A DNA stretch of 64,000 nt from an uncultured Aureispira sp. (GTDB lineage: Bacteria; Bacteroidota; Bacteroidia; Chitinophagales; Saprospiraceae). The notes beneath the pieces are model-generated. The model ran no database searches. It had not been told where the DNA came from and saw nothing but the letters and a program-made list of their open reading frames with translations. Shown piece after piece: positions 1 to 25,700 of the stretch. The DNA lies in NCBI GenBank assembly GCA_964526715.1, contig CAZGMB010000024.1, positions 6,324-70,323 of the forward strand. Direction: 5' to 3'. How positions within the stretch are numbered: position 1 is the first letter of the stretch; each line of letters starts with the position of its first letter. The translations under genes were made by a program, and so were the position numbers.

Positions 1-3000
1 TTGGAGCTGCCTGTCAATGTGGCACTGTTTACCTTACAGGTAAGTTCTTGATTTGGTCCTGCATTAGCTGCGGGCAAATTTGCATCTTTTATTACTACTA
101 CATTGTCAGTAGCCACACATTGATCAGGGAAAGTTACCGTAATAGTATAAGTTCCCTCTGTACTTGTAGTTACTGTTTGACCTGTATTATTAAAGCCGTT
201 TGGTCCTGTCCATACAAACACTCCACCTGTTGATGCTGTAGTAGCCGTTAATGTAGCTGTGTTTTGAGCACAAGTAAGTTGTATATCTGGACCTGCACTC
301 ACTATCTGTGTACATGTGGAGCATGGCGTCTGCGTTACTGTAAATGGAACGGTACATCCATTGTTAATTGCATCCGTTACCACCAAATTCAAGACTTGTC
401 CATTGGCAGGAAGATTATTAATAGTGGCCACCTGTCCGTAAGTAAAAGGTCCGAAAGTTTGAGCACCCAATGTCACATTGTAAAAATTGGTACTTCCACT
501 CACCACATTAACTACGAAAGTGATACTAAATCTATCATCCAAGGTGGTGTTTCCAGTATTATTATTGTCACAGCTTCCAATGACAATATTATTTACTGCC
601 AATACACAAGGAGTACTACAAGCAGGCGGTGCTGTTACATTGACTACCCTTCTACATTGATTATCATTTTCATCCACAATTGTCAACGCCAAATTACCAC
701 CAGATATCGGATATGGTCCTAATACTACATTAGTATTATAGGGGTATAAAGTAGCATTGTTGGATAAACGCCAATTGGCTGAAGTATTAAATCCTGTCAC
801 TCTTATGGTAAAAGTAAAGGTATCGTCTGAAGGATCATTAATCGTACCATTGTTATTACACAAAATATTGGATACCACACCATTTACGCTACAAGCTCCA
901 GAACATCCATTAAGACTACCTACCGGTATGGTGGTAAAGCAAGATATATTCAATAAGTCCCTGATTCTGATATCGGGTGATGTGCCATTGGCAGGAAGTT
1001 GAAAACTTACTGGTGCCCCATAATTGTAAGTGCCTGAAATCACATTGTTAATCAATAACGAAAATTGAGTAGATGTGCCAGCATTTACTGATGTAGCTAC
1101 AAATGATATCGTATAAACATCATCAGAAGCATCAGCATCAGTGCCTTGATTGTTACAAGAAATATCAAGGTTATTAACGGTGATTTCACAATTAGTAGAA
1201 CATGAAACTAATGGTCCAATATTTCGGGTCACAGTACATCCTGTAATATTATCAATAATCTCTAAGGTTCCTGAACTACCATTAGCCGGTAATTCAATGG
1301 TATTTAGAATATTGTAATTTAGATTATTACTTATCACTTCACTATTATACCTAACCGTGTATGTGTTAGTTACGCTAGGAAGTGACCCAATATTCATTTT
1401 AATCACATAAACATCATCGTTGGCATTGCTCAATGTCCCTTTGTTGTCACAATCGATATCAAAAGTATTGATAGAAAGACGTTGACCACTTAATATTTGT
1501 AACGGATAAGAAGCCACACATAGATCAGCCAATGTTCTGACTTGTATTGTATAGCTTGCGGCACTTAAATTGCCAAAGAGCGGATTGGTTGTCCAAGGCA
1601 AGTTGTTTAATCTAAATTCCAAACCCGTAGTTGGAGGATTTACGGTAATAGAACCATTATTTGCCCCAAAACATATTTCATTTTGTACATTAAATGTTAC
1701 ATTAGGAATAGCTAAGACATTTAAAGTGACTTCTGCAATTGATTTACAGTTATTTGCATTCGTGACAACTACAAATATCTTTTGACCATTAGCTGTGTTT
1801 GTATATGTCAGCGGCAACGGATTGGTATTGTTTTGAGCGTCTGCCAACGTTGCGTGGTATGTAAATGTAAACCCTGCACCTGAAATAATGCTACTTTGAG
1901 CTAAAGCCAAGTCAAAAGTGGTGATACCATCCCTGTCATTATCACATACTGAAAGAGTCGCATTTTGAACCTGTGGATTCGGTGTTACTTCAAATAAAAC
2001 AGGGATTCTTTGACTCTTACATGCATTAAGTGTATCAATTGCCTGAACATAATAAGTGAATATACCTGTTACATTTGTTGGTGGTAAATAAGTTAGCGAC
2101 TTATCTTGCAATACTACACCGCCATTGGGTACACTAAACCATTGTGCACTTTGATTTGGACCGGTTACCGTAACTGTTAACGCTACACCCGTTTGCCCCT
2201 CACATGCTTTTTGATTTCCACCCGAAACTGGATTTGGAATGATCGGACAGTTACATTGTGGTGGATCCACTACGATAGTTTGATTAGCACAGTCTGCCAC
2301 AGTAGATACCAAGGTTAGGGTTACACTTTGACCAATGGGAATATTGGATATGGTTCTGATACTACCATTGACGGTGATTGTACCCGCAGATGCTGTAACA
2401 TTATAACCAAAAACCTGTATCCTGACACTATATGTATTGAAGTCAGGTGCACATTTTACTTCTATGACTTCATAAGTACCCGGATCTAACAATTCTACTT
2501 CTACGGTTGCTACCGCATCCGGACAAATACTAGTGCTTGGTACAATATAATCAAATGGATAAGTGTCCGCCGTTTGACCAGCAAAACTTACATTAGCTGG
2601 GTTTGAAATATTGATTCCCGTAGCATAGGTATCTGACCAAAATCCATTCGTAGCAAAAGGAGGCGTCAGTAATGACCATAAGTTTACTGATCTACCATCA
2701 TTACAAATTCTTAATGTTTGACCTACTCCAGCTTGTGGTCCTAACACATTGATAAACTTAATTTCTACTTCATCAGTACATCCGAATTCATTCGTAGCTA
2801 GGATATAATAACTCGTAAACACATCTGTTGTAACTGGTGAAGGAATCTCATTAGCTGGACTTGCTGGAGTTCCATTGTGATATGTTAAGGTGATATTTGT
2901 GTTGTTTAAGTCGGTAACCAAAATCTCAGCAAGGTCAAAAATTTCGCCTAAACAAATTTCAATAGACGTTCTGTCTGCGATAATATTGGGTACAGGGACA

Positions 3001-6000
3001 ATGGTTACTTCCTGATCAACGGTAATATCGGTTCCTGTGCATGCATTTCTATACGTCCAAGTGTAAACCCTAGTATTGCCATTGTCCACAAATGTAGGGT
3101 TGACTGACCCTGAAATGGCACAAGGTGCCACTAAGCCATTGGTATAGTTAAGTGGTTGTGGTGTAGGAAATCCAACATTACATGGTAAAAATACGTCTGC
3201 AGGATCGTCAGTAAAAAATGGATCCGGTGCAGGAAGTACATTTATATTTTGATTATACACAATTGATCTGCCGCATGCATCGGTAAACTGCCAAGTATAT
3301 TGGATGGTACCACCACATTGATTGTAACTACCCGTTTGTATTGGAATTACTGATCCAGAGATTTCACATGGTGCAGCTTCGCCATTAGAGTAAAATAATG
3401 CTGGTGGCACTGCCGGAATATCTACACACTCTACTTGAATGTTAGCTGGTGGTACATCTAAAAATACTGCAGCCGGAGTAGGTTGTACATTTATATTTTG
3501 TACATGATCCAATTTAGTGCCACATTGATCAGTAATGGTCCAAGTGACTGTAGCATTACCTCCACATTGATTTACACCTGCCGTACTTAAAATCGGAAGC
3601 ATTTCTCCAGACCTTTCACACTCACCCGAGATACCATTACTATACTCAAGAGGTATGGCAAATGCAGAAAGATCCTGACAAGTTACAGTGACATCCTGTG
3701 GTAATGGAGTGATTATAGTCGGTGGTGCAGAAGGTAAAACAACAATAATCTGACTGTATGATATAGGGCGATTACAATCGTCAACCCCGTTCCAATTGAT
3801 GGTGATATTGCCTCCACATGCTCTAAAGTCTCTAACTACAACAGGAGAAATACTACCAGAAATCAAACATGATGAATTATTAGTGTAGTTGATATCCGGA
3901 GCATCAAACAATTCTGCATCAGCACATGAAAGCGTGGTATAAACAGGAGGATTGATCAAAGTTGCCACAGGAGGCGGCAATACATTGACTACACGGGTAT
4001 AGGTATATCTCCTATCACAAAGATCGGTGTACTCCCAAGTGTACGTGTAAGTTTTAGCACAATTATTTTCTACCACGTTCAGAGTAGGTATGACATCAGC
4101 TGTGATAAGACAACTTCCTGTAGAGTTATTGGTGATTTGCAATACAGGTAGATTTGATGGATCTGGCTCATCTGTACATTGAACTGTACTTAATGGTGGT
4201 GGCGGATTTACAAAGGATGGCTCTGCAGGAGGTAACACCGTGATGGTCTGGCTCCAAACGATTGTCCTACCACATTGGTCCATATACTCCCATTGCAATT
4301 GATAGGTTGCCTGACAATTGACAATGTTTGAATTTATGGTTGCTTGTACTGAACCTGAGATACCGCAGACTCCTGAAAGTCCGTTGGAGTAATTCAACAC
4401 AGGAGGTGTACTTAAGTCCGGAGCATTCACACAAGAGAAAGTGGTGCTAGCTGGAGGATTAGTAAATGTAGGCGGCGGCGGCGGGAGTACATTTATAGTT
4501 CTGGTGTAAGATATTGTTCTACCACAAAAATCGGTATGCTCCCACAAATAGGTATAAATCTTGGAACAATCTGGATTTTCTTGCACCTGCGGTACGGCGG
4601 TAATAGTTCCAGTAATGGCACAATCACCACTGGCGCCATTGGTATAATTTAATGGTATAGCTGTGCCCGGATCTGGTGTATTTACACATGCCAAAGTTTC
4701 TGATGGTGGTGGGTTTACAAAAGACGCAGGAGGTGGAGGATTGACCGTGATAGTTCTGACATGGGTAATGGTGCGACCACATAAATCCATAAACTCCCAG
4801 GTGTAGGTATATTGACCCTGACAATTTTCAACGGTTCCACTCCTTACTGGAGGCACAGAACCAGAGATACCACATCCATTTAAAGTTTGTCCATTGTTAT
4901 AACTCAACGGTGGCAATTCATCAAAATCAAAGCCATCGCAAGACTGTACTGTAAGACTAGCTGGTGGATTAATCCATTGCGGAGCTAAAGGCGGATCTAC
5001 GTTTACTATTTTAGTGTGAGTGATAGTTCTATCACATGCATCCGTATACTCCCATTCATAAGTAATTATTTTGGAACAATCTGGATTGGAAACCACTGAT
5101 GGTGTCGCATTGATGGTGCCACTAATCAAACAATTGCCCGCAGCACCATTGGTATAATTTAGAGCCAAGGGAACAGTTGTATCAGGTGCATTTTCACAAG
5201 TTACAGTCTCTGATGCAGGCGGATTTACAAAAGCTGGAGCAGGTGGTGGGTTTACAGTTACCGTTCTGATATGGGTTATGGTTCTTCCACATAAATCCAT
5301 AAACTCCCAAGTGTAAGTGTACTGTCCTTGACAATCTTCAACACTTCCAGTCCTGACATAATCAACACTTCCGCTGATACCACATCCATTCAGGGTTTGG
5401 CCATTGTTATAATTTAATGGCAGCGGTGCATCAAAATTGAATCCATCACAAGACAATACCGTAATACTAGCTGGTGGGTTGATCCATTGAGGAGCTAACG
5501 GTGGATCCACGTTTACTATTTTGGTATGGGAGATCGTTCTATCGCAAGCATCTGTAAATTCCCACTCGTATGTAATAATTTTAGAACAATCAGGATTGGA
5601 AACAACTGTTGGTGTGGCATTGATGGTACCGCTGATAAGACATGTTCCTGATGCCCCATTGGTGTAGCTTAAAGGTAAAGGTACTGTAATATCTGGTGCA
5701 TTTTCACAGGTTACGGTCTCTGATGCCGGTGGATTGACAAAAGCAGGTGCAGGAGGCGGAATCACAGTTACCGTACGATTATGTGTTATAGTCCTTCCAC
5801 ATTGGTCCATAAATTCCCATGTATATGTGTAAGCACCCGCACAATCATCAACACTTCCTGTTCTGACGGGTTCATCGCTTCCACTGATTCCACAACCATT
5901 TAGTGTTTGACCATTATTGTAAAACAATGGAGGCAACGCATCAAAATTAAATCCACTACAAGATTCCACAGTAATGTCTACAGGTGGATTGATCCAAACT

Positions 6001-9000
6001 GGTGCAAGTGGCGGATCTACATTAATGATCTGCGTATGGGTAATTGTACGGTCACAAAAGTCAGTAAATTCCCACTCGTATGTGTACACTTTGGAACAGT
6101 CAGGGTTTTCTACCACAGAAGGCAATGCTGGTACAGCACCACTTATGAGACACATCCCAGAACCATTATTGGTATAGCTGAGGTTCACTGCTAGATTCTC
6201 ATCTGGCTCATTCTCGCAGGTTACAGTATTATTAGCTGGTGGATTGACCCAAACTGGGGCAGCTGGAGGTACTACAGTTACTACTTTGGAATGAGTGATC
6301 GTCCTATTACATTGATCTATAAAAGTCCAAGTGTAGGTATATGATCCTTGACAATCTTCGACTGAACCTGTACGGACTGCTTGTACCGAACCTATGATTT
6401 GACATCCAGCCCCACTTAAAAAATTATTGTATGATAAAAGTGGTAGCGCATCAAAATCATACCCGGAGCACGACTCTACCGTTTCATCTGTGGGCGGAGA
6501 TATCCATGTCGGCAAATCAGGTGGACTCAAGGTGTACACTTGCGTGTGTGCTATAGTTCTGCCACAGGGATCCGTAAATTCCCAAGTAAATGTAATGGTT
6601 CCCTCACATTCCTCTATATCGTCAACCCTAACAGGTGGGACAGATCCTGCTATTTCACAAAATGACCCTGCCGGCGCACCGTTAGAATAAGACAATGGCG
6701 GCAAAAAAGAAGTTGGTAATGTCACTCCACAGGCCAAAGTCACATCAGCAGGAGGATTGATCCAAACTGCTTCTGGTGCAGGATCAACAAATAATATTTG
6801 CTGATAAGATATGGATCGCCCGCAACTATCTGTTTTTTCCCATAAGTATTCGATCTGTCCTCCGCAGATATCATAAGCATCGGTACGGTCGGGAATCACA
6901 GTACCCGCTATTCTACACCTTCCCGAAGGTACACCGTTAGAATATTGCAAAGGTGGCAAAACAGATGGGTCTGGTATCATAGCACATGTGATCGTCGCGG
7001 TATCTGGAGGTATATTTTGAAATGTAATGTCTAATGGTGGCTCTATAGTCCACACTTGGGTATGGGAAAGCGGCCTACCACATCGATCATTACCTTCCCA
7101 AGTAAACGTCACTGTACCTTCACAGTTGACAGTATCAACGGTTTGAACGGGTATAATTTGTCCTGCCACTGCACAGAATGGCCCTGTTTGACCATTAGTA
7201 TAAGATAAAGGCGGCAAGAAATTGGCATCGGGAAAAGCAGTACAAGCTACAGTTACGTCCGCAGGTGGCTGTATAAAAGCAGCTTCCAAAGGTGGATTGA
7301 TGGTGATCACTTGATCATCTAAAATTTCCTGCATACATACATTGTCATTGGATTGCCATGTGTATGTGACTGTCCCCATGCAACCCATGGTATCTACAGC
7401 ACGTGTGGCTGTAATGGTGCCAAAAACCCGACATGCTCCCGTCAAACCATTATCATATGATAGAGTAGGTAATGGTGTTGCTGGTGGAAATAAATCGCAT
7501 GATACTGTTATATCTACAGCAGGGGTAAATGTAGCCGGTGGTACTGGTTGTATGGTTATGGTTTGTACATGACTCGCAGTATTACCACAGCTATCTGTGA
7601 TTTCCCAGGTACGAGTGATCGTTCCACCGTCGCAATTAGTATAATTGTCTTCTTGTACCCCTGCAAGCGTGCCACTACCTAAACAATTGTCTGTAAAAGA
7701 TAAAGTAGGCATAGCAGGTACTGACAAAAAACAATTAAAAGTCGCGTTGGGAGGCCCACCCGTAATGACTGGCTGGATATTATCCTGAAATGAAAAAGGA
7801 GCAGAGTCTAACTCACAACATGTCGTCATAGTGGTACAACCCGATATTATATCTGCTATATTATCACCCACCATGGGAGGATCGGCTTTAGCGGTGACAT
7901 AATTATAACTATATGCAGTAAAGTCCGCACAAGTCGGCCAAGTAAAGGTAGTAGATGTTCCTGGGACGACCGCAACCAATTCTCCGGAAGCATTGGCTAT
8001 GAGAATATATTGCGAGTATCCTGTTGCTAGATTGGGGTTTCCACCAACATTAATATTTACTGTACCATTGGGACACACGGGTGTGGGTGATGCGGTGATG
8101 GTACCCGCTTCCGCATCGTAGACATTAACCGTTATACAGTTGGGTAAAGGACTAGCCGTTAGAGGCACGCAATCATTTTGCACATCCGTACATAGAGTAT
8201 ATTGCCCTGGGGTGGTCCAAGTGTGGGTGTAGGTCATTTCTGTCTCACCTCCATTAATATTATTACTAAACAAAAAAGTATTACCTGGTGTCCAGGCAGG
8301 TCCATTATCAAGTGTCCAAACATATCTAATACCACCTGGAGCTAAAGGTGTAGTATATGTATAAGATTGACCTACACAAGCATTGATTTCACCAGTTACA
8401 GGACCACCAAAAGGCTCTATAGCTGGATCACAACCAGGTGCAGTTACAGAAAAAGTTACCGAACACCTAGATCCACCACACCCATCTACAACTAAATGAT
8501 ACGTTTTACCCTTAATTGCTCCTGAAACATTTAAAGTTCTAGTACCTGAGACTACACCACATCCAAAACATGGAGGGTTTGCACCACCACATGGAGGTGG
8601 CTGAAAGTCAGCATCACATGCAATAGCTGATGGAACGTTATTACATTCACCATAAATTGCAGCCTGAATTCCTCTACTTGTTCCACTTCCTGTACAACCA
8701 GAAAAAGACAAATTTACAGTAAAATCTTCGCAAATGGCTGTAAATCTTAGCCATGTTGGATTTTGCCAAGCAGTGTTTGTAAGGCCTACGCACAAATCGC
8801 CACTACTCGGCCCTGACGGCGGAGTACCTGAGTTTCCCATTTGAAAAGTATAACCTTGCAAACAATTTATCGTACAAAGTAAGGGTGCTGTACTACAATT
8901 ACAAGTAGGAGAACTTGATCCAGTGTTACACACAGACCATGGTGGACATTGAGCAAAAATTTGATAGCTGATTCCAAATAAAATAAAAAGAGTAAATATA

Positions 9001-9011
9001 AGCTTACGCAT
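1..9011 (-). CDS. Giant secreted cysteine-rich tandem-repeat surface protein (adhesin-like). N-terminal >3,000 aa are present; the C-terminus lies beyond the left window edge. Not in the supplied ORF track.
   Basis: The reverse complement from 9011 reads ATG CGT AAG CTT ATA TTT ..., giving MRKLIFTLFILFGISYQIFAQ followed by CPPWSVCNTGSSSPTCNCS (signal peptide, then a Cys-rich mature part). The same frame is open and in register where hand-translated at 8821-9011, 5281-5342 (VEDCQGQYTYTWEFMDLCGRT), 1381-1499 (QILSGQRLSINTFDIDCDNKGTLSNANDDVYVIKMNIGS) and 3-59 (GPNQELTCKVNSATLTGSS). There is no stop before position 1, so a stop-bounded ORF caller skips it. Only plus-strand ORFs of 152 aa or less cover these 9 kb. 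Confidence 0.8.
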   Translation of the reverse strand, partial: MRKLIFTLFILFGISYQIFAQCPPWSVCNTGSSSPTCNCSTAPLLCTINCLQGYTFQMGNSGTPPSGPSSGDLCVGLTNTAWQNPTWLRFTAICEDFTVNLSFSGCTGSGTSRGIQAAIYGECNNVPSAIACDADFQPPPCGGANPPCFGCGVVSGTRTLNVSGAIKGKTYHLVVDGCGGSRCSVTFSVTAPGCDPAIEPFGGPVTGEINACVGQSYTYTTPLAPGGIRYVWTLDNGPAWTPGNTFLFSNNINGGETEMTYTHTWTTPGQYTLCTDVQNDCVPLTASPLPNCITVNVYDAEAGTITASPTPVCPNGTVNINVGGNPNLATGYSQYILIANASGELVAVVPGTSTTFTWPTCADFTAYSYNYVTAKADPPMVGDNIADIISGCTTMTTCCELDSAPFSFQDNIQPVITGGPPNATFNCFLSVPAMPTLSFTDNCLGSGTLAGVQEDNYTNCDGGTITRTWEITDSCGNTASHVQTITIQPVPPATFTPAVDITVSCDLFPPATPLPTLSYDNGLTGACRVFGTITATRAVDTMGCMGTVTYTWQSNDNVCMQEILDDQVITINPPLEAAFIQPPADVTVACTAFPDANFLPPLSYTNGQTGPFCAVAGQIIPVQTVDTVNCEGTVTFTWEGNDRCGRPLSHTQVWTIEPPLDITFQNIPPDTATITCAMIPDPSVLPPLQYSNGVPSGRCRIAGTVIPDRTDAYDICGGQIEYLWEKTDSCGRSISYQQILFVDPAPEAVWINPPADVTLACGVTLPTSFLPPLSYSNGAPAGSFCEIAGSVPPVRVDDIEECEGTITFTWEFTDPCGRTIAHTQVYTLSPPDLPTWISPPTDETVESCSGYDFDALPLLSYNNFLSGAGCQIIGSVQAVRTGSVEDCQGSYTYTWTFIDQCNRTITHSKVVTVVPPAAPVWVNPPANNTVTCENEPDENLAVNLSYTNNGSGMCLISGAVPALPSVVENPDCSKVYTYEWEFTDFCDRTITHTQIINVDPPLAPVWINPPVDITVESCSGFNFDALPPLFYNNGQTLNGCGISGSDEPVRTGSVDDCAGAYTYTWEFMDQCGRTITHNRTVTVIPPPAPAFVNPPASETVTCENAPDITVPLPLSYTNGASGTCLISGTINATPTVVSNPDCSKIITYEWEFTDACDRTISHTKIVNVDPPLAPQWINPPASITVLSCDGFNFDAPLPLNYNNGQTLNGCGISGSVDYVRTGSVEDCQGQYTYTWEFMDLCGRTITHIRTVTVNPPPAPAFVNPPASETVTCENAPDTTVPLALNYTNGAAGNCLISGTINATPSVVSNPDCSKIITYEWEYTDACDRTITHTKIVNVDPPLAPQWINPPASLTVQSCDGFDFDELPPLSYNNGQTLNGCGISGSVPPVRSGTVENCQGQYTYTWEFMDLCGRTITHVRTITVNPPPPASFVNPPPSETLACVNTPDPGTAIPLNYTNGASGDCAITGTITAVPQVQENPDCSKIYTYLWEHTDFCGRTISYTRTINVLPPPPPTFTNPPASTTFSCVNAPDLSTPPVLNYSNGLSGVCGISGSVQATINSNIVNCQATYQLQWEYMDQCGRTIVWSQTITVLPPAEPSFVNPPPPLSTVQCTDEPDPSNLPVLQITNNSTGSCLITADVIPTLNVVENNCAKTYTYTWEYTDLCDRRYTYTRVVNVLPPPVATLINPPVYTTLSCADAELFDAPDINYTNNSSCLISGSISPVVVRDFRACGGNITINWNGVDDCNRPISYSQIIVVLPSAPPTIITPLPQDVTVTCQDLSAFAIPLEYSNGISGECERSGEMLPILSTAGVNQCGGNATVTWTITDQCGTKLDHVQNINVQPTPAAVFLDVPPANIQVECVDIPAVPPALFYSNGEAAPCEISGSVIPIQTGSYNQCGGTIQYTWQFTDACGRSIVYNQNINVLPAPDPFFTDDPADVFLPCNVGFPTPQPLNYTNGLVAPCAISGSVNPTFVDNGNTRVYTWTYRNACTGTDITVDQEVTIVPVPNIIADRTSIEICLGEIFDLAEILVTDLNNTNITLTYHNGTPASPANEIPSPVTTDVFTSYYILATNEFGCTDEVEIKFINVLGPQAGVGQTLRICNDGRSVNLWSLLTPPFATNGFWSDTYATGINISNPANVSFAGQTADTYPFDYIVPSTSICPDAVATVEVELLDPGTYEVIEVKCAPDFNTYSVRIQVFGYNVTASAGTITVNGSIRTISNIPIGQSVTLTLVSTVADCANQTIVVDPPQCNCPIIPNPVSGGNQKACEGQTGVALTVTVTGPNQSAQWFSVPNGGVVLQDKSLTYLPPTNVTGIFTYYVQAIDTLNACKSQRIPVLFEVTPNPQVQNATLSVCDNDRDGITTFDLALAQSSIISGAGFTFTYHATLADAQNNTNPLPLTYTNTANGQKIFVVVTNANNCKSIAEVTLNVLAIPNVTFNVQNEICFGANNGSITVNPPTTGLEFRLNNLPWTTNPLFGNLSAASYTIQVRTLADLCVASYPLQILSGQRLSINTFDIDCDNKGTLSNANDDVYVIKMNIGSLPSVTNTYTVRYNSEVISNNLNYNILNTIELPANGSSGTLEIIDNITGCTVTRNIGPLVSCSTNCEITVNNLDISCNNQGTDADASDDVYTISFVATSVNAGTSTQFSLLINNVISGTYNYGAPVSFQLPANGTSPDIRIRDLLNISCFTTIPVGSLNGCSGACSVNGVVSNILCNNNGTINDPSDDTFTFTIRVTGFNTSANWRLSNNATLYPYNTNVVLGPYPISGGNLALTIVDENDNQCRRVVNVTAPPACSTPCVLAVNNIVIGSCDNNNTGNTTLDDRFSITFVVNVVSGSTNFYNVTLGAQTFGPFTYGQVATINNLPANGQVLNLVVTDAINNGCTVPFTVTQTPCSTCTQIVSAGPDIQLTCAQNTATLTATTASTGGVFVWTGPNGFNNTGQTVTTSTEGTYTITVTFPDQCVATDNVVVIKDANLPAANAGPNQELTCKVNSATLTGSS
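3000..7700 (-). repeat. About 18-19 tandem ~255-260-bp (~86-aa) domain repeats inside the 1-9011 gene. The central copies (about 4480-6120) form a ~520-bp two-domain super-repeat with high nucleotide identity.
   Basis: A minus-strand peptide motif, W-E-[FY]-x-D-x-C-[GD]-R-[TS]-I, recurs about every 250-260 nt. Plus-strand images include ccacataaatccataaactccca near 4780 and 5296, and ccacattggtccataaattccca near 5796. Further copies lie near 3270, 3520, 4010, 4270, 4520, 5030, 5545, 6050, 6310, 6560, 6820, 7080, 7340 and 7590. Blocks 4741-5260 and 5261-5780 align almost base for base by eye. Confidence 0.7.
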
Positions 9012-9679
9012 CAGGACATTATTTGGTGTTTGTTAAAGGAGTCACAAATAAAAGACAAAATTTTGAAATAATTTAACATTATATTAAAATTTAAATAGTA
9101 ATGTGTTAAAATTTAGACAAAAGTTGCCCTGATAAGACATTTTATTCTATGACATTTACACCTTAAATAATAAAATTCAATAACCTACTTACTTTAAATT
9201 CAGAACGCATTACACAACACAAAATATACTTGGGTGTAGGGTTTCATGTATCTTTTGTTTATTAGCTTCATTTATTGTAGGATATTGTAAAGAAGCTACC
9301 CTTTTTGTAGTAAACACTATTAGGAGCTAGTCTGAGCCGTTGTTTGCGCTTGATGATTAGCTTACTCAAAAACACATTATTTGGGACACATGTGAAGAAT
9401 ATTATTTGAAAAATTATGGTAAGTACACCGTTTGATTTAACAAGATTTCCCTTCAGGTCTCTCATTTTTAGAAGTCAGAGATTAAAACTTTGAAGCGTGG
9501 ATGCCACTTTGCTGAATCCAATATCTATGACTAAAAATCATATGTATAAATCCGTCCATTTGTCGCTATCAAGACATTTATAATCGACTTATTAAATAGG
9601 GAATACTTTAATAATGGGGCAAAAAAAAATATTTATCAATTATTTTACAAAAAAAGTGATATATATTAAAATAAACCCT

Positions 9680-9760: not shown

Positions 9761-10057
9761 ATGAATATTTTCGTTGCGAAACTAAACTACAGAACTACTT
9801 CTGAAGCTTTAGAAGACTTATTTGCACAGTACGGCGAAGTTGTAAGCGCCAAAGTAATTACTGACAGAGACACAGGTAGATCTAAAGGATTTGCTTTTGT
9901 TGAAATGGGAAGCGAAGATGCGGGTATCGCTGCTATCGCTGGATTGAATGAAACACAGTTTGACGGTCAGACCATTGTTTGTAAAAAAGCAGAACCAAGA
10001 CCGGCTAGTCCGCCAAGAAGAGATAACAATTTCAGACCAAGAGAAAGAAGATATTAA
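9761..10057 (+). CDS. RRM-type RNA-binding protein (single RNA recognition motif with an Arg/Pro-rich tail)
   Basis: RNP-2 IFVAKL and RNP-1 KGFAFVEM motifs. 98 aa, matching bacterial Rbp-type proteins. Confidence 0.9.
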   Translation: MNIFVAKLNYRTTSEALEDLFAQYGEVVSAKVITDRDTGRSKGFAFVEMGSEDAGIAAIAGLNETQFDGQTIVCKKAEPRPASPPRRDNNFRPRERRY

Positions 10058-12557: not shown

Positions 12558-13256
12558 ATGCATATATTATTGGTTTTTGCCACCGCTACTGAATGTGAGG
12601 GATTTCAAAGCACACTAGAAAAAAATGCTACTTTTGATGAAGAAAATGCCTTTTATTCTTTTAAAAATCTAACCCTAGAGTTTTTTGTTTCAGGTGTAGG
12701 AATGACGACTACATGTTATACACTGACTAAAAAAATAATGGCTTCAGACTACGATCTTATTATTAATGCTGGAATAGCAGGTGCATTTGATCGTAAAGTT
12801 TCACTCGGCTCTGTGTTTTTGGTATCCAAAGACAGGTTTGCGGACTTAGGAGTGGAAGATGCTCAAGGCATATTTTCAGACGTATATGAAACAGGTTTGG
12901 TTTTAGGCAATAATTTTCCATTTCGAGATGGTTGGATGCAGGCAGATTTTGGCATTTTATCTTTTGATCTGTATGACCATGCCATAGCAATAACAGTCAA
13001 TAAAGTAACTGGAAGTGCCACATCTATACAAAGCATCAGAACAAAATATCAGCCTGATATAGAAAGTATGGAAGGTGCTGCCTGTTTTTACGTTGCCAAA
13101 ATGAATCATATTCCATGTTTGCAGCTTAGGTCTATTTCTAATCATGTAGAGCCAAGAGATAAGTCTAAATGGAATATTCCACTCGCTTTAAAGCATTTGG
13201 AAGATGCTTGCTTCCATATTTTGGAATACATTAGCAAGCAAATACAAATTCCTTAG
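12558..13256 (+). CDS. mqnB: Futalosine hydrolase-like nucleosidase (PNP_UDP_1 fold, MqnB-like)
   Basis: ILLVFATATE N-terminus, INAGIAGAF, SMEGAA and LRSISNHVEPRDKSKW motifs, typical of MTA/futalosine nucleosidases. Confidence 0.55.
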   Translation: MHILLVFATATECEGFQSTLEKNATFDEENAFYSFKNLTLEFFVSGVGMTTTCYTLTKKIMASDYDLIINAGIAGAFDRKVSLGSVFLVSKDRFADLGVEDAQGIFSDVYETGLVLGNNFPFRDGWMQADFGILSFDLYDHAIAITVNKVTGSATSIQSIRTKYQPDIESMEGAACFYVAKMNHIPCLQLRSISNHVEPRDKSKWNIPLALKHLEDACFHILEYISKQIQIP

Positions 13257-13261
13257 GCAAA

Positions 13262-14353
13262 CTACTTTTTATCAGTAATACGTTTTTTGTTATTTTGATA
13301 GCTGATCATCAGCCTGGTGATGTCATTATAACTTGCTAAGCCGTCTTCAATCCCATGTAACTTAAGATAGAAATCATAGATCAAATCTCTTACCCAAGGA
13401 AAAATATCCGGATACTTTTGGCTATCATAGCGTATGTTTTGTAGATCCTTAACCACATGGTGATGAAGTAATGAATAACACTTTTGTGCGACGTCAGGAT
13501 ATCTGCTATTGACATCATAAAATAAATATCTCCAATATGAAATCCATCCTGAGTATTGTAAGTAGGTATTATTTGATGTTGCACAGCTGAGCAATCCTAT
13601 GAAATTGCATTCTCCTTCATCTGTAAACCCATAACCATGTGCCATTTCGTGAGCTATGGTAAAAGGCCACTGCAATGGATTTAAACCCGGATCTACATGA
13701 CCCTCAAAAGAAAACGGATTGTAAAATCCGGCTGTAGCTATCCGGAGCAAACTTCCTTTTGGGTACAATGGTCTGATCCTTACCTTACCTGGAGTGGGAT
13801 ATTCCCATTGTTGTAGTAATTTGGTTTGAGATAGTCGTACTTCATTTTCGATAATTGTCCATGACAGCTGCTGATCTGATATAGTACTATCAGCATTTTG
13901 ATATGCATTGAGACGTTGCGTAATATCAAGTAATTCCTGAACTAATACCGTAGAATCTATGTCGACTTCGTTCCATTGTTGGGTTTCTAAAAGACCACTT
14001 CGGTGATAATTATAACCCCAAAAGAGATAAAACAAACCTACCAATAATAAAACTATATTTACTGTTTTGGCGATAATCAATTTAATGGCAGCCTTCCAAC
14101 CGTATTGAAGTTTGTGAAAATAGGCCTTTCTCCACCATAAGTAACTTACGCAAACTAACCCGATTAAAAGCAAATAGATAGTTGCAAAAGGTACTTTTCC
14201 CAAAGTAAAATCATATATATTTCTGATCACAGCAAAAAGGCTACTATAGATCTTGTGAAATCCTTTAGGTGATACCATTGATGCTATCCCATGGACTATA
14301 ATCACCAAAACAAAAAAGGTGATTCCATAATATTTCCTTACAAAATGGATCAA
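13262..14353 (-). CDS. Membrane zinc metallopeptidase-like protein (DUF3810-like)
   Basis: Three or four N-terminal TM segments, an HEMAH zinc motif (HExxH) and a downstream TDEGECNFIG, resembling the EDEANF motif of DUF3810. Confidence 0.6.
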   Translation of the reverse strand: MIHFVRKYYGITFFVLVIIVHGIASMVSPKGFHKIYSSLFAVIRNIYDFTLGKVPFATIYLLLIGLVCVSYLWWRKAYFHKLQYGWKAAIKLIIAKTVNIVLLLVGLFYLFWGYNYHRSGLLETQQWNEVDIDSTVLVQELLDITQRLNAYQNADSTISDQQLSWTIIENEVRLSQTKLLQQWEYPTPGKVRIRPLYPKGSLLRIATAGFYNPFSFEGHVDPGLNPLQWPFTIAHEMAHGYGFTDEGECNFIGLLSCATSNNTYLQYSGWISYWRYLFYDVNSRYPDVAQKCYSLLHHHVVKDLQNIRYDSQKYPDIFPWVRDLIYDFYLKLHGIEDGLASYNDITRLMISYQNNKKRITDKK

Positions 14354-16354: not shown

Positions 16355-17467
16355 TTACCATTGGGGGCAAAAGTTATCTTCATTGTGGTGTTCGCCAATG
16401 TAGATTATAGAAAACTCAAAAGATGACAGTGAACTCCTGTCTTTTACTAAGCTATTGATGTTTTGGTCATAGCTAAATCCAAGGATAAAATTGTTGTACT
16501 CAAATCCTGCCATGGCTATAATGGATTCCAATCCAAAGTTATTATAATTTTTTACACCTCGTATATAAGGCCCCAATAGTAGGTACTGTCCAGATGTTTT
16601 AGCTATTTTATATCTGAAAGTAGCCCCTAGGTTTATTTGAGAATGTGGGCCTTGAATGAGTGTATTAACCCGAGGTTGTATGTAAAGCCTATCTGCAGTC
16701 TTTATAGAAGCACCGGTGTGAAAACTCCATTTTGCAAACAATGTATCTGTTTTGAGTAAGTCAGGGTCTACGATATCCGGTGAGTTAAAAAAAGAAATAT
16801 TGGGTTGATTAAAATGAAAATAACCAATTCCTGCATGAAAGTTGAATGCTTTACTTGGGGTAATGCTATAATATAAACCCAAACTCATGTCAACAAATGC
16901 TTTATTGTTTACGGGAAGATTTTCTCCTGTGCCTAAGGTATAACCATTGATAGAGTTAAATTGATCTTGGAAGGTTATATCTTCATAGTTGACTGACTTT
17001 TGAAAGACACCACCCTGAAAACCGATACCCAAATATTGTTTACTTTTCCTGTCTAATGCTTTGTGATATGCTCCTGTTAATACGATTTGATTGGTATTGA
17101 AGTCAAAGGTGTTTACCCGATCTCCAAAAAATGTTATACCTAAAGCAACATGGTCAGGAATGTGTTTTTTGCCTAAATGTACATCAAACCTTACATCTCC
17201 GCTTGCAGAAAAAGTAGTCAAAGGACGATCTACTACAGATCTCCATTGATCTCTATATATGGTAGAAATACGAAATGTCCCTTTATAGGTACCCGCAATG
17301 GCAGGATTTAAAGTCAGTGGTGATGCATAAAACTGAGAAAAATGAGCATCTTGTGAAGTTAGCTTGCCTATAATGATCAAAACCAGCAAAAATGCCCCTA
17401 AGTTTCTAAATACTAATTTAATGCTCATTAAAGATATATTTAATATGAAATTGAAAATAATTTTCAA
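16355..17467 (-). CDS. PorP/SprF-family type IX secretion system outer-membrane protein
   Basis: SQDAHFSQFYASPLTLNPAIAGTYKGTFRISTIYRDQW matches the PorP/SprF N-terminal signature, and the remainder is beta-barrel-like. The true start may be the internal Met at about 17428 (MSIKLVF...). Confidence 0.85.
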   Translation of the reverse strand: MKIIFNFILNISLMSIKLVFRNLGAFLLVLIIIGKLTSQDAHFSQFYASPLTLNPAIAGTYKGTFRISTIYRDQWRSVVDRPLTTFSASGDVRFDVHLGKKHIPDHVALGITFFGDRVNTFDFNTNQIVLTGAYHKALDRKSKQYLGIGFQGGVFQKSVNYEDITFQDQFNSINGYTLGTGENLPVNNKAFVDMSLGLYYSITPSKAFNFHAGIGYFHFNQPNISFFNSPDIVDPDLLKTDTLFAKWSFHTGASIKTADRLYIQPRVNTLIQGPHSQINLGATFRYKIAKTSGQYLLLGPYIRGVKNYNNFGLESIIAMAGFEYNNFILGFSYDQNINSLVKDRSSLSSFEFSIIYIGEHHNEDNFCPQW

Positions 17468-19743: not shown

Positions 19744-22700
19744 TTACTCAACTATGATCATTTTCTTAGTCGCAGTAAAGTCTCCACTTTCAAGAGTGTA
19801 ATAAAGTACACCACTAACACCTAATTGCTCTTTGGTGAATACTTCATTGTTCATACCTTTTACAGCATCAATGTTTCTAACAACTACAAGTTTACCAGTC
19901 AAGTCATAAACACTTAGTGTAGCTGTAGCTGCTTGTGGCATACTGAAGCTTACTGTGGTTTGACCTCTGAATGGGTTTGGTTCGTTTTGGAACAATTCGA
20001 TTACTGAAATCGGTGCAGTACGTACGTTAAGTTTTACTCCTGCTACTTTCAGGTCGCTTGAGTAAGACTCTGCTTTAGTTACATTTGAATTCAATGTCAT
20101 CATTTCACTTACACTGGTTGCTTTGTCTGCTTTAACAGATATAGTGAAAAGTACTTCATTACTACTCAAATCTACATTCTCAACAGCTGCATAACTCATG
20201 GTTACATTGCCATTTTCAAGAATTCCTATATTAGCATTGTTGATATCTAAAGATCCACTGTTTACACCTACAAGCTTAGCATCTTTAAGGTTCATTGTAA
20301 ACTGGAATCCTGCCAACTCATCCATATTAGATGCTGTAAATGGTATTTCTACGGTTTGTCCAGCTTCTATATTGGTTTCATCAACATTAAAGATAATTCC
20401 TGTATTTGATCTTGGCTCTGTAAGCGCATTTACCACATCAGTAGTAGCACTAGAGTTAACATCTCCAATTTTTACAGCTACTAAATCCTGACCTGTTTTG
20501 GTCTCATTCAAACCTTGATATTCAAAAGCATCAGTGTAAGGGAATGGATTCTTAGCATCTAAAGTTTGTCCTTTAACAGGGAATCTCCAGCTTGCATTTC
20601 TGAATTCATCATTTACACCCAAGATTACTTTACGTAATTCTGTAAGGTCACTTGCTGTTACTCTTCCGTCATTGTTTGCATCAGATGCAATCACTTTGTA
20701 GGTATCATTAAAGACATCTAATCCTAAAATGTGTCTCTGAATCAATACAAGGTCAAGCGTTGTAACACCGTTAAGGTAATCACCACCTTTAGCTGCAGAT
20801 ACTTCATAATCCATATCTGAAACTACTTCCATTACATAATTACCAGCTGCATCAGGTTGAACTGTTTTAGGGAACTCAGGTAAATTAGTTTCAAATGTTA
20901 CGTTTACATTTTTAACTGCATTACCAGTTGAAGTCAATACTGTACCAGAAACGATAGGTTTGTTAGTATCACAACCTCTGATATTAAGTAAAGTTGAGCA
21001 GAAGTCTGTATTCCAAGCTTCATCCCATACACTTACTTCAACAGTAAAGTCACCACATGTTGTCCAAACTTTTCCAGCGCTTCTTGCTGATGGTAACCAC
21101 TTATAAGCTCTACCTTGAGCATATTCTGCTGCTGTTGCATTTACACTTCCGTTTGCACCTGCTTTGTAGAAGTGCTCGTCATTGATTCTAGAATATATTG
21201 GAGCCACTTTATCAAATGTAAAGTATAGTTTAGACTGAGGTGTACAGTTATCAAATGCACCTTTGTCGAAATCTTTAGCCCACAATTCAACCATCTTAGG
21301 ATTAGTCTGCATTACAGCTGTGTTGATGCTTACACAGTAAGGCGTAGGTGCTTTTTTGTCCACTACCATTACTGTACTTTCACATTGTGCTACATTACCA
21401 CATCCGTCAGTTACTTTCCACAATACTTTGTGGCTAATGTTCTCTGCGTCTAAGATAAACGCTGTCGCACCTGTTCCTACTGGTATTTTCACAGTCTCAC
21501 CACTTGCTTTTGTAGGTCTGATGTACGTTACATACACTAGATCTGCCAATGGTGCTCCTGGATGTTGTTGCTGTAATTGTGCCCAAACTGGGTTTGGTGC
21601 TCCTGTAGCCAACAATCTTGTTTGAGCTACCCAAATACCATTCCATGATTTGTTCACAAAGCTTGATGCTAATCTGTCTACTGTACCATTGGCCCAGCCG
21701 TCAAAGAACATCTGCCACTTAATCCAGCTTTCGTCAGCACATACTAACGCGTCTGTTGCTGATGCTTCTAGTGCTACCTGAGCCTCACATCCTCCGTTAG
21801 GATTAAGTGCGCTTGGGTTTGCTGCAAACATCTGATCTTGACATGTCAATACTGGTTCGATTTCGTCTTTGTAAGTATAGAAGTGAACAAATGGTCCTCT
21901 ATCTTCACCAGTACACCAGTTTTTATAGTTGTACTCTACTCTCCACTTCTTACAAGCTCCATCTTCGAATAAGAAAGTATCAATTTTGATATTCTCACCG
22001 ACGATATCACACTGACCGTAATTTACTATTGGTTTCTTGATAACAGGATTGTTAGCATCTCTAGCATCTGCTAAGTCAAAGCTACACTTATTCCACTCAG
22101 TCGTTGTATTATTTTGTGGGAACGTCACTGTAAATGGTGCCGTAATCGTCGTAACTGTAATGAATTGAACACATGTAACTACTGTATTACCTTTAGTTAC
22201 TTTGAATGTTCTTCTTAGTGTTCCACTCTTACAAACATCATTGAATTGTCCAACCCACTGGTCTCTGTATGTAATGTCTATGTTAGAACAAAGATCATAT
22301 GCTTTAGGTAATCCTGTCATGGTAAGGCTAGAACTAACTGGCGTGTCAGCATCTAAACTTAAGTTCAACTCCATATCACATGTTACTGTAACATCAGCAG
22401 GACAAACCAAAACTGGAGGAAGCTTATTCTCTACTCTTACAGTCACCCAAGTGGTATTGTAATTATCTCTCATTCCATTAATGATAAGATTATCACCGTA
22501 CACACCATTCATGTTACCATCATCCCATACTCTCAATTCCACATCGTGTAATCCAAACTCAGCTCCTGCAGGGATATCCTCACAACAGAACTTAACATAT
22601 TCACCACCATCTGTATCAATGATAATATTATTATCTCTAGTATCATTAGGGTGTGCCCATACATTGTTTGGAACGTTGTCCACAGGTGAGTGATTGTATG

Positions 22701-25700
22701 TGCTATTGTTATTATGATTGTTTGCTCCTATGTTTCCACATGAACCACCACTCAATCTTCTAACTTCAAGTTTCACATCTGTACAGTGGTCATATGAACC
22801 ATTATCAGCTGCGTCTGCATAAAGTTTAGCAAAACCGTCACCTTCACCACCGGTAAGACTTAAAACTATGTTTTGTAAGCCTATCGCTACTGGTGGACTA
22901 AAGTCACCTACAGTTACGTAGTAATAACATCTAGAAATATTACCACACTCATCCATGATAGTATACTCTACTAAATGTCTTCCTTTTTCAAGACCTTCCA
23001 CTCTAACTTTAATATCGTGTTCGTCGTGTCCAAGGAAACCACCTGTTACTATGGTTCTTCCTGGTCCAAATACTTTTGCAGTAAATGAAGCAACAGAAGA
23101 ACAACCATCAACCATTACAGCTGGTACAGGTAAGTCACTATGTGCAACACATCCCCAAGGATCTACACCAATAGTGATATCGTCAGGACATTCGATAATC
23201 TTAGGTCCTTTAGTATCGTTAACTTTGATAACCTGAACATGTACTCTTGGATTTGTAGAAGATAGTGGTAAACACATATTTCTAACTTTCCAAGTTCTCA
23301 ATATTTCATAACTACCTGGACAAATGTCAAAGATTTCGTCAGAAACATTTACACTCACCATACATAGGTTACCTGTTTTATTAACCGGTGTACCATTTAA
23401 TGATGGGAAGCCTGTATTGGAAGCATTGGTAAGACTTGGCGTTTGTTTAACGTCAGTACATTCTAATGCTTTGTCATTAGTAAAGTCTGCCGGCCAAACA
23501 ATGTTATCAAGATTTAAACCTTCAATAGTTATGATTTGGTCACAGCTTACTGTCTCACCATTACCATATGTTGAAGTCCAAGTTCTTGTTATGATTGCTC
23601 TCGGTGTAGCACACTGACCTCTATCATCAAACCAATCTTTGTAAGTGATTACTGCACCTGGCTTACAAGTTCTTAAGAAAGCTTCACCAGTTTTCAATGC
23701 GCCAGGTACTTTCGTTCCATCTGCCAAAGTGATGATAAATCTTTCATTTACATCTGTATTACAAGTTACTGTAACATTCGCAGGACAATTGATTTCAGGA
23801 ACCAATTTCTCCTCAATTGTCACTGTACCCCAACAACTGTTGCCTGTACCATTACAATCTACGATGCTCACTTTGAAAGTCTGATCTTTGTCGGAGATGT
23901 CAAAGAAGTTTGCATGAGGGATACCACTTAAAGTAGTAATCTCAATACAATATCTGTCAAAACATCTGTAATCATTACCTTCTAACAACATATCAGGATT
24001 AATTCTAGCTTCACAATTGTTGTCTAGAGATAAGTTGATATGGTCATTACAAGTAATCGTGTTACTTGGGATGTTTTCTTGTACCACTACAGTAAATGAA
24101 CATGTTGCAGTGTTACCTGCGATATCAGTTGCTGTTGCTGTAATTACGGTAGTACCAATCGGCAAATTAAGATTTGCAGGACTGTAAGTTACTACTGCAC
24201 TACAATTGTCTGTGGCAGGTACAGCACCAGGCCATTGGAAGGTACATTGACCTGATCCTAGTCTGAATGTCTGGTTACCCGGACAAATAATAGATGGTCT
24301 AGTAACGTCCCTTACAGTTACCGTTGCAAAACAAGCTGCTTCATTTCCACAATCATCAATTACTTTAACCAATACTTGATTTGGACCTAAGTCTGCACAA
24401 GTAAAGTTCAATTTTGACAATTGGAAAGTAAGGTCTGCTGCTGCACTACATGCATCAACTGCACCAGCTATTCCACCTTCGATCACATCACCCGCAGTGA
24501 TAGATACTTTTCCATCTGCATCAAGATCTACATTAATATTTTTACATGTAAACACAGGTGGTCTAGTGTCTCTAATTGTAATTCTTTGAACACCACTACT
24601 TCTATTTCCACAAGGGTCAGTTGCTGTCCAAGTTCTAGTAATGACACCTGTAAATCCACAAGTTCCTGGAGCAAAAGTCTCAGTAAATTCTATACAAATG
24701 AACTGAGAAGGTGCACAGTTGTCAACAGCGGCTGCTACTCCAAACTCTGCAAATGTTGCAGTTGGTGCAAAACTTCCTGTTGCAGGATTACAAGTAAATG
24801 ATTTAACTACATATGGTCCTGTACATTCAACAGTTACGTTCAATGGAACCGTAATTTCAGGAGCTTTAGAGTCTCTTACAGTAACTACTTGATTCCAAAT
24901 TTGTGCGTTATTGGATGCATCTCTTACAGTCCAAATGTTAGTCAATGTGTAATTGTAATGAGCACACAATGCTTGGTTAGGACTCTTAGTAGAGTTTTGT
25001 ACAAAAGCAATGGTCGGTGCAGCAGTACAGTTATCTTCTACATCATTTGGATTTAATACCAATGGTGCAGGTACATTATCACATTCTACAGTGATATTTT
25101 GTGGTTTACCCACCAATATCTCTGGTTGTTGTGAATCTAAGACTAAGATAGTAAATGTACAAGTCGCTGTATTACCATCATTGTCAGTAGCAGTATATCT
25201 GATGGTGTAAGGTCCTCCTACAGGTATTACATCTCCAGGTACAAATTGATTTGTTGGAGCGGCAACCACTGTAAGTGGAACATCACAGTTATCCACTGCA
25301 TATGGTATATCCCAATTTACTTTTGCACTACAACGATCTACGTCATTATTCACCATGATCATTGAAGGACAATTAGTAAAGAATGGCATTGCTCTGTCTA
25401 CTACAGTAATGTTCAATGAACAACTACCTTCATTACCAGCAGCATCTCTTACATAATATCTCAATACACTTAAACCTTCTTCAAAATCATAAGCTACATT
25501 TCTATTTCCGCCTGCAGCAATAAGCTGTGTAAGTGTAAATGGTCCTGCTACAGTTCCATCAGGGTTAGTGATGCTGTATGTGTAAACCGTAACTCCACAA
25601 TTATCCGCAGGTATAGGGTGTGTCCAAGACATCTGGCTTTCGCATCTAAAGATTTCCGTAACTAATGGATTGTTAGGAATAGATGCACAACTTACAGTTG

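Follow-up and report, generated by a model that had tools for sequence, protein, structure and literature searches.

The left end of a 64,000-nucleotide stretch of DNA from an uncultured Aureispira sp. (referred to as the window; C24:6324-70323) was analyzed for a giant gene on the minus strand, in a genome assembly of 5.5 Mb with 150 contigs and 99% completeness. A listing that allowed open-ended frames showed an open reading frame (ORF) running from an ATG at 9011 to position 3, with 3,003 codons and 0 stops up to the window edge. The codon-first positions were 9011, 9008, and so on to 5 (all 2 mod 3), and no stop codon occurred among them. This confirmed the first-pass annotation, made from the letters of the window, which had proposed a frame starting at 9011 and staying open through the edge; the translation, beginning with MRKLIFTLFILFGISYQIFAQ, was exactly as quoted there. 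The random occurrence of 3,003 open codons at 41% GC was estimated at ~1e-82. The contig reaches 6.3 kb to the left beyond the window, and the ORF extends past the edge to C24:2987, where it stops 3,336 bases beyond the left end of the window. Outside the window lie 1,112 codons with the stop codon, at G000:C24:2987-6325 (= L003:2987-6325). The complete ORF encodes 4,115 aa and is N-free across the whole stretch; the leftmost 9 kb of this window encodes the N-terminal ~3/4 of the protein.

Only two open frames of the genome exceed the 4,115-aa frame in length, namely one of 7,567 aa and the second giant gene of the window. The 7,567-aa frame (G000:C2:64165-86865 (-)), with weak HYR_4C matches, is probably another giant surface protein. 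The ORF track supplied with the window missed the gene because frames open at the window ends go unlisted. In the closed-frame listing (≥150 aa, positions 1-9500), the sole ORF was a 152-aa antisense frame at 264-722 (+). The gap in the track had been pointed out correctly, and the omission is technical in origin, caused by the window edge. A Bacteroidota-type promoter was looked for by eye upstream of 9011, and none was callable.

The domain anatomy was determined with residue numbers referring to the full 4,115-aa protein. Residues 1-20 (8952-9011 (-)) form a signal-peptide-like leader, MRKLIFTLFILFGISYQIFA|Q, composed of MRK, a hydrophobic core, and IFA|Q. The n/h/c layout and the cleavage site were assigned by eye, and the layout is kept in homologs. 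The leader is followed by a Cys-rich tip of 175 aa (residues 21-195; 8427-8951 (-)) with ~13 conserved Cys, modeled as a disulfide-rich beta-sandwich, and by two immunoglobulin (Ig)/PKD-like domains (residues 196-410; 7782-8426 (-)), which were 81% and 93% identical to those of the nearest ortholog. The largest part of the window portion is an array of HYR_4C (PF23237) units at residues ~411-2010 (2982-7781 (-)), with 19 units of ~85 aa and 4 Cys each. PF23237 scored 240 bits and exceeded its threshold in 13-14 stretches, in the tandem four-Cys arrangement of HYR_4C repeat proteins. A self-built hidden Markov model (HMM) gave 19 full units and a degenerate 20th match overlapping the next region. 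Within the array, a 510-nt super-repeat of two units occurs in 3 copies at 4671-5990. Since the copies share just 67-76% of their nucleotides, they are, on this divergence, neither young nor at risk of assembly collapse.

The array is followed by an Ig-like region (residues 2011-2440; 1692-2981 (-)), which includes an Ig_7 domain (CHU_C-associated) at 2261-2344, and by a first SprB-type repeat (residues 2439-2495; 1527-1697 (-)). A first FIDD-type block (residues 2511-2897; 321-1481 (-)) consists of four Cys-bounded units of ~95 aa with the motif C-[DN]-N-x-G-T...DD-x-[YF]. PKD/Ig_7-like units at residues 2905-3003 (3-299 (-)) are cut by the window edge, and this stretch runs to 3056, so that parts of two PKD-like units lie to the left of the edge. 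To the left of the window, the protein continues with a second FIDD-type block of four units (residues 3061-3447), five PKD/Ig_7-like units (residues 3455-3854), a second SprB repeat (residues 3865-3900), and an Ig domain (residues 3957-4016) preceding the C-terminal domain (CTD). FIDD-type and PKD-like units were counted by using self-built HMMs, which gave 7 PKD/Ig_7-like units in total at 2905-3056 and 3455-3854. The FIDD (PF26689) label was taken from precomputed Pfam matches of relatives, the family being newer than the Pfam copy searched. Between leader and CTD there are ~45 small beta-sandwich modules: 19 HYR_4C, 8 FIDD-type, ~12 Ig/PKD-like, and 2 SprB.

It had been predicted that leftward extension of the contig would reveal a gliding-motility or type IX secretion system (T9SS) C-terminal domain. 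A CHU_C domain (PF13585, the type B T9SS sorting domain) was found at residues 4024-4100 of 4,115, with 42.9 bits against a gathering threshold (GA) of 27. It scored 48.7 bits in the genome-wide search, and its C-terminal position is that of type B cargo. The protein contains 166 Cys, or 4.0%, vs 1.1% in the long frames of the genome. The earlier description of an edge-cut, secreted, Cys-rich giant repeat protein was supported, with the full length refined to 4,115 aa.

Several searches gave no further assignment. Tandem Repeats Finder with a period limit of 500 nt showed no tandem DNA repeats in the giant gene, and self-BLASTP of the whole protein showed no off-diagonal matches. Residues 2005-2100, 2340-2440, and 3935-4030 and the second FIDD-type piece had no Pfam matches at E≤1; the first FIDD-type piece had a single sub-threshold, chance-level match at the same limit. 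The whole protein had no match to PDB sequences at E≤0.001 and one chance-level match at E≤10. A literature search on HYR_4C, FIDD, PF23237, and PF26689 found nothing.

The conservation of the giant gene was investigated by comparison with its relatives. A 4,110-aa ortholog, P0002 (locus L004), ~86-89% identical, was found in the same gene neighborhood of an independent assembly. The ratio of nonsynonymous to synonymous substitution rates (dN/dS; Nei-Gojobori) against P0002 was 0.017-0.075 in every body segment, with dS of 0.4-3. At residues 1001-1400, an apparently low identity to P0002 came from misalignment in the super-repeat region; local-pair alignment gave 85%. These substitution rates indicated that the giant gene is functional and that its body is under strong purifying selection. 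Because dN/dS was low in this frame, the giant frame, and not the antisense frames, is the one under purifying selection. About 35 proteins of the same architecture (P0002-P0036), with 31-89% identity and 2,600-4,100 aa, were found in metagenome-assembled genomes (MAGs) of Saprospiraceae, Chitinophagales, and Bacteroidota. They share the order tip, HYR_4C, Ig_7, FIDD, SprB, and CHU_C. The named genomes were MAGs labeled Aureispira sp. CCB-QB1, Lewinellaceae bacterium, and Saprospiraceae bacterium, and the closest was Aureispira sp. Several relatives already carried the name 'gliding motility-associated C-terminal domain-containing protein'. The giant gene is an ordinary member of a known and already annotated kind, with many giant surface proteins in the same genome. 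In contrast to the body, its tip is of another type than that of the nearest ortholog (43% vs 85-97% elsewhere).

The fold of the tip was investigated by structure prediction. Residues 21-195 had no Pfam match even at E≤1 and no NCBIfam match, and the tip profile gave chance-level matches only against PDB sequences. AlphaFold2 models were built on a 23-sequence alignment. Residues 21-420 had a predicted local distance difference test score (pLDDT) of 83, and residues 21-202 had a pLDDT of 82 and a predicted template modeling score (pTM) of 0.82; the models were all-beta, and the pLDDT of the two Ig/PKD-like domains was mostly 80-97. The tip alone had Foldseek matches with E ~1e-3 and template modeling (TM) scores of 0.3-0.55 to clostridial collagen-binding/PPC, CBM35, CBM6, and Eph ligand-binding domains and to similar jelly rolls. 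The 400-aa N-terminal model matched only generic Ig/FN3 arrays. The models suggested that the tip may be a binding-module-like beta-sandwich with conserved disulfides and variable loops, as an assignment at the level of fold class. The tip profile was present in 107 of 151 sampled family genomes (106 of 150 genera), with 1-10 copies each. The tip-bearing open frames were 244-4,590 aa, and wherever the position of a copy was checked, the tip was near the N-terminus. Among 1.84 billion representative proteins, the profile had 170 matches.

The divergence of the tip was sharply bounded. Compared with P0002, codons 1-16 and ~60 nt of 5' flank were 80-97% identical in nucleotides. Codons 17 to ~195 were ~50% identical in nucleotides and 43% in amino acids, with no blastn match there. 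Amino acid identity returned to 81-97% from the first Ig domain (Ig1) on, leaving sharp breakpoints at the signal peptide/tip and tip/Ig1 junctions. The dN against P0002 was 0.58 in the tip and 0.025-0.10 elsewhere; the tip evolves ~6-20 times faster than the stalk. The tip segments compared were 8427-8951 (-) of the window, L004:10049-10585, L014, L013, and P0066/P0067.

The tip of P0002 shared 74% identity with that of a short secreted paralog in the genome of the window itself (C30:37720-39048). This paralog, L014 (G000:C30:37720-39048 (-)), has ~423 aa, in which the tip is combined with a PKD-like domain and with Ca-binding repeats of thrombospondin-type-3-like form (DxDxDGxxDxxDNC). The genome of P0002 (sister G151) showed no counterpart of this short gene. 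The closest relative of the tip of the giant gene was P0066, with 78% identity. P0066 and P0067 were identical in 17/17 residues of the signal peptide and 76% identical at the start of Ig1, and their tips shared just 48%. In a same-genus genome, L013 (G080:C18:28876-31492) encodes an 872-aa protein that continues after the N-terminal modules with an unrelated domain and ends in a type-A-like CTD. Its tip, Ig, and first HYR_4C domains were 80-94% identical to those of the giant ortholog in the same-genus genome. The comparison with L013 showed an N-terminal module shuffled across the two export routes, type A and type B.

The direction of the exchange was assessed with more distant orthologs. 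Their tips were 55-61% identical to the tip of P0002, about the overall identity, and 37-45% identical to the tip of the giant gene. Because the tip of this gene is at odds with those of all orthologs, replacement most likely took place in the lineage of this gene, judging from these identities. Overall, the pattern looks like repeated cassette-type head exchange between conserved flanks, as suggested by identity comparisons on a handful of pairs. It is tentatively proposed, at somewhat under even likelihood, that the tips form an undescribed Saprospiraceae-wide head-domain family. Such a head would serve as a cassette exchangeable between paralogs and lineages, re-targeting a conserved giant stalk to new ligands on the surfaces of prey, hosts, or substrates. 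Some novelty attaches only to the tip, as an unannotated, family-wide, exchangeable domain.

The secretion machinery of the genome was examined next to the cargo. The genome encodes a T9SS, with SprA matched at 1,943.8 bits and 12 PorP/SprF paralogs over the cut-off. A GldK-like frame adjoins a PorP gene on C39. There are 31 CHU_C proteins in the genome, and in 4 of them a PorP/SprF gene lies directly downstream, which is the classical cognate layout. Directly downstream of the giant gene, no sprF-like or porE-like gene was found; ComEC and then MscS occupy this place. Since it has no adjacent sprF-like or porE gene, the giant protein belongs with the 'orphan' type B cargo, a recognized subclass. 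L004, L005, and L006 are also without PorP directly downstream, L004 sharing the layout, and two relatives of 56-59% identity have no PorP gene nearby at all.

The upstream side holds genes for an RRM protein, an ABC exporter, a futalosine hydrolase, DUF3810, a thioesterase, and LipB, followed by a PorP/SprF-family gene at 16355-17467 (-). The latter matched TIGR03519 with 166.9 bits vs a cut-off of 90.55, and lies 7.3 kb upstream, sharing no operon with the giant gene. Type A cargo use PorV; the type B giant would therefore be a likelier client of this PorP/SprF protein than the type A giant of the window. The PorP/SprF gene is proposed, purely as a hypothesis, as the nearest candidate shuttle or anchor for the type B giant. 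Its position is conserved, and its protein is 91% identical in the sister genome. It adjoins no type B cargo gene and is located 2.3 kb from the type A giant.

Taken together, the giant gene very probably encodes a functional 4,115-aa T9SS cargo that ends as a long filamentous cell-surface adhesin. On the pattern of published work on type B cargo, the protein would be exported by Sec and cleaved after Ala20. Disulfides would form in the periplasm among its 166 Cys, four per HYR_4C unit. The CTD would be recognized at SprA, and a PorP/SprF-like shuttle would extract the protein, which would stay bound to the shuttle at the outer membrane. In studies to date, type B CTD proteins have stayed attached to PorP-like proteins (PMC9143113, PMC12618676). 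On the stalk, the Cys-rich N-terminal tip would stand ~150-200 nm off the cell, as scaled from GhpA (5,898 aa, 240 nm). The tip would be the likely ligand-binding head; its fold resembles carbohydrate-binding modules (CBMs) or collagen-binding beta-sandwiches, it evolves faster than the stalk, and it appears to have been exchanged between proteins.

Some results weigh against this reading. The leader was judged by eye. TIGR04131, the model of the type B sorting domain, scored 34.6 bits vs a cut-off of 35, which is borderline. The Foldseek matches of the tip are weak, and 'binding module' is a fold-class assignment. The gene downstream is ComEC in the place of a shuttle gene. The GldJ-like gene scored 353 bits, under the equivalog cut-off of 458, so that gliding is at most putative for the organism. 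The Bacteroidota O-glycosylation motif D[ST][AILVMT] was not enriched in the giant protein, with 11 observed vs 17±4 expected.

Among known systems, the giant protein would work like the SprB-class type B adhesins, within the CHU_C cargo class; the sequence features point to a likeness of class, not to orthology. SprB of Flavobacterium johnsoniae is a 6,497-aa gliding adhesin with a type B CTD, bound by SprF. Like SprB, the giant protein would be a Sec and T9SS cargo, and the two share giant size, a CHU_C CTD, SprB-type repeats, and a long stalk of Ig-like repeats; the genome of the window also has SprA, PorP/SprF paralogs, and a GldJ-like gene. In contrast to SprB, just 2 SprB repeats are over the cut-off here and HYR_4C and FIDD units make up most of the stalk, with neither an operon of the sprC-sprD-sprB-sprF type nor an adjacent sprF. 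The many SprB repeats and the sprB-sprF linkage that mark SprB orthologs are thus absent from the giant gene. A second comparison concerns the F. johnsoniae orphans Fjoh_1123, Fjoh_1720, plus Fjoh_4934, which have the unlinked shuttle Fjoh_1677 (PMC12618676). Like them, the giant gene has a type B CTD and no adjacent sprF or porE, and an unlinked 'orphan' PorP/SprF gene (16355-17467) lies near it. The giant protein differs in being far larger and in having other passenger domains, and its shuttle pairing is that of a candidate only.

The destination of the adhesin on the cell was considered from these comparisons. The 'orphan' type B substrates of F. johnsoniae share one common unlinked shuttle and have the gliding track as their destination (PMC12618676). 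Cargo encoded with a PorE homolog is static (PMC12618676). By analogy, a mobile SprB-like adhesin would be somewhat more likely than a static one, because the F. johnsoniae orphan cargo share an unlinked shuttle and load onto the gliding track.

Aureispira GhpA offers a different model, in which aligned protomers form a static multimeric appendage whose rigid stalk is anchored by PorP/PorE homologs and whose tip catches prey or partner cells. GhpA has 5,898 aa, a length of 240 nm, a head of ~1,400 aa, and a heptameric stalk, with ghpB (PorP) and ghpC (PorE) downstream (bioRxiv 10.1101/2024.01.29.577165). The giant protein is likewise a giant Saprospiraceae T9SS cargo in which an N-terminal head is followed by a disulfide-rich Ig-repeat stalk and a CTD, and the closest named genome is labeled Aureispira sp. 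However, ghpB and ghpC follow ghpA, whereas ComEC and MscS follow this gene, and no ghpB- or ghpC-like downstream genes are present. The head is ~175 aa with two Ig domains, far from the head size of GhpA, and no chain solved in the PDB matched the sequence beyond chance even at E≤10. A static appendage of this kind was thus considered unlikely for the giant protein.

Release into the medium or matrix, through cleavage or weak binding of the CTD, would make the protein soluble or matrix-binding. Release is known for some T9SS cargo, and anchor genes are absent next to the giant gene, but the type B CTD proteins studied stay on PorP-like proteins (PMC9143113, PMC12618676), and a stalk of ~45 domains is best explained by anchoring at one end. 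These considerations make release improbable. That the gene is a decaying pseudogene or a MAG assembly chimera of repeats is scarcely credible and largely refuted: the assembly has 150 contigs, the gene contains repeats, and its tip is sharply unlike that of the nearest ortholog, but there are 0 stops in 4,115 codons and no N in the stretch, dN/dS is 0.017-0.075 across the body, the internal repeats (67-76% identical in nucleotides) are too diverged for assembly collapse, the 4,110-aa ortholog has the same neighborhood in an independent assembly, and a tip-only chimera requires two crossovers inside 540 nt.

For annotation, 9 kb appearing empty or filled with short antisense frames is one gene, and the remedy is to list open-ended frames and to follow the contig further. 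Little changes through the gene itself, since giant T9SS type B adhesins abound in this genome. It provides a natural example of an 'orphan' among type B cargo, with an unlinked PorP/SprF gene close by. The tip family provides a handle on how Saprospiraceae, which include epiphytes, floc dwellers, and ixotrophic predators, vary the binding of their surface filaments.

The second giant surface protein of the window is encoded at 19744-34965 (-). The first-pass annotation had counted two giant Cys-rich surface proteins in the space of 35 kb. The second is real and is a T9SS protein, with 5,073 aa and 3.6% Cys, but its CTD is of type A, not type B; the protein contains HYR, FBA, and dockerin-like modules. 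In a 59% relative, an HYR/beta-helix giant with a type A CTD (L005:1-8683) is located directly upstream of the ortholog of the type B giant (L005:10001-22294). The L005 type A giant was called as three genes, possibly split by frameshifts. Such a pair of giants, one of type A and one of type B, may recur.

In the 1.26-kb gap upstream of the type B giant, a divergent gene at 9761-10057 (+) encodes an RRM-type RNA-binding protein of 98 aa. It is conserved in the sister genome with ~89% nucleotide identity. Among the other upstream genes, DUF3810 (13262-14353 (-)) was 51% and futalosine hydrolase (12558-13256 (+)) was 57% identical to the sister genome, and the flanking genes were 75-94% identical. 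On these identities, divergence from the sister genome is very uneven across the neighborhood.

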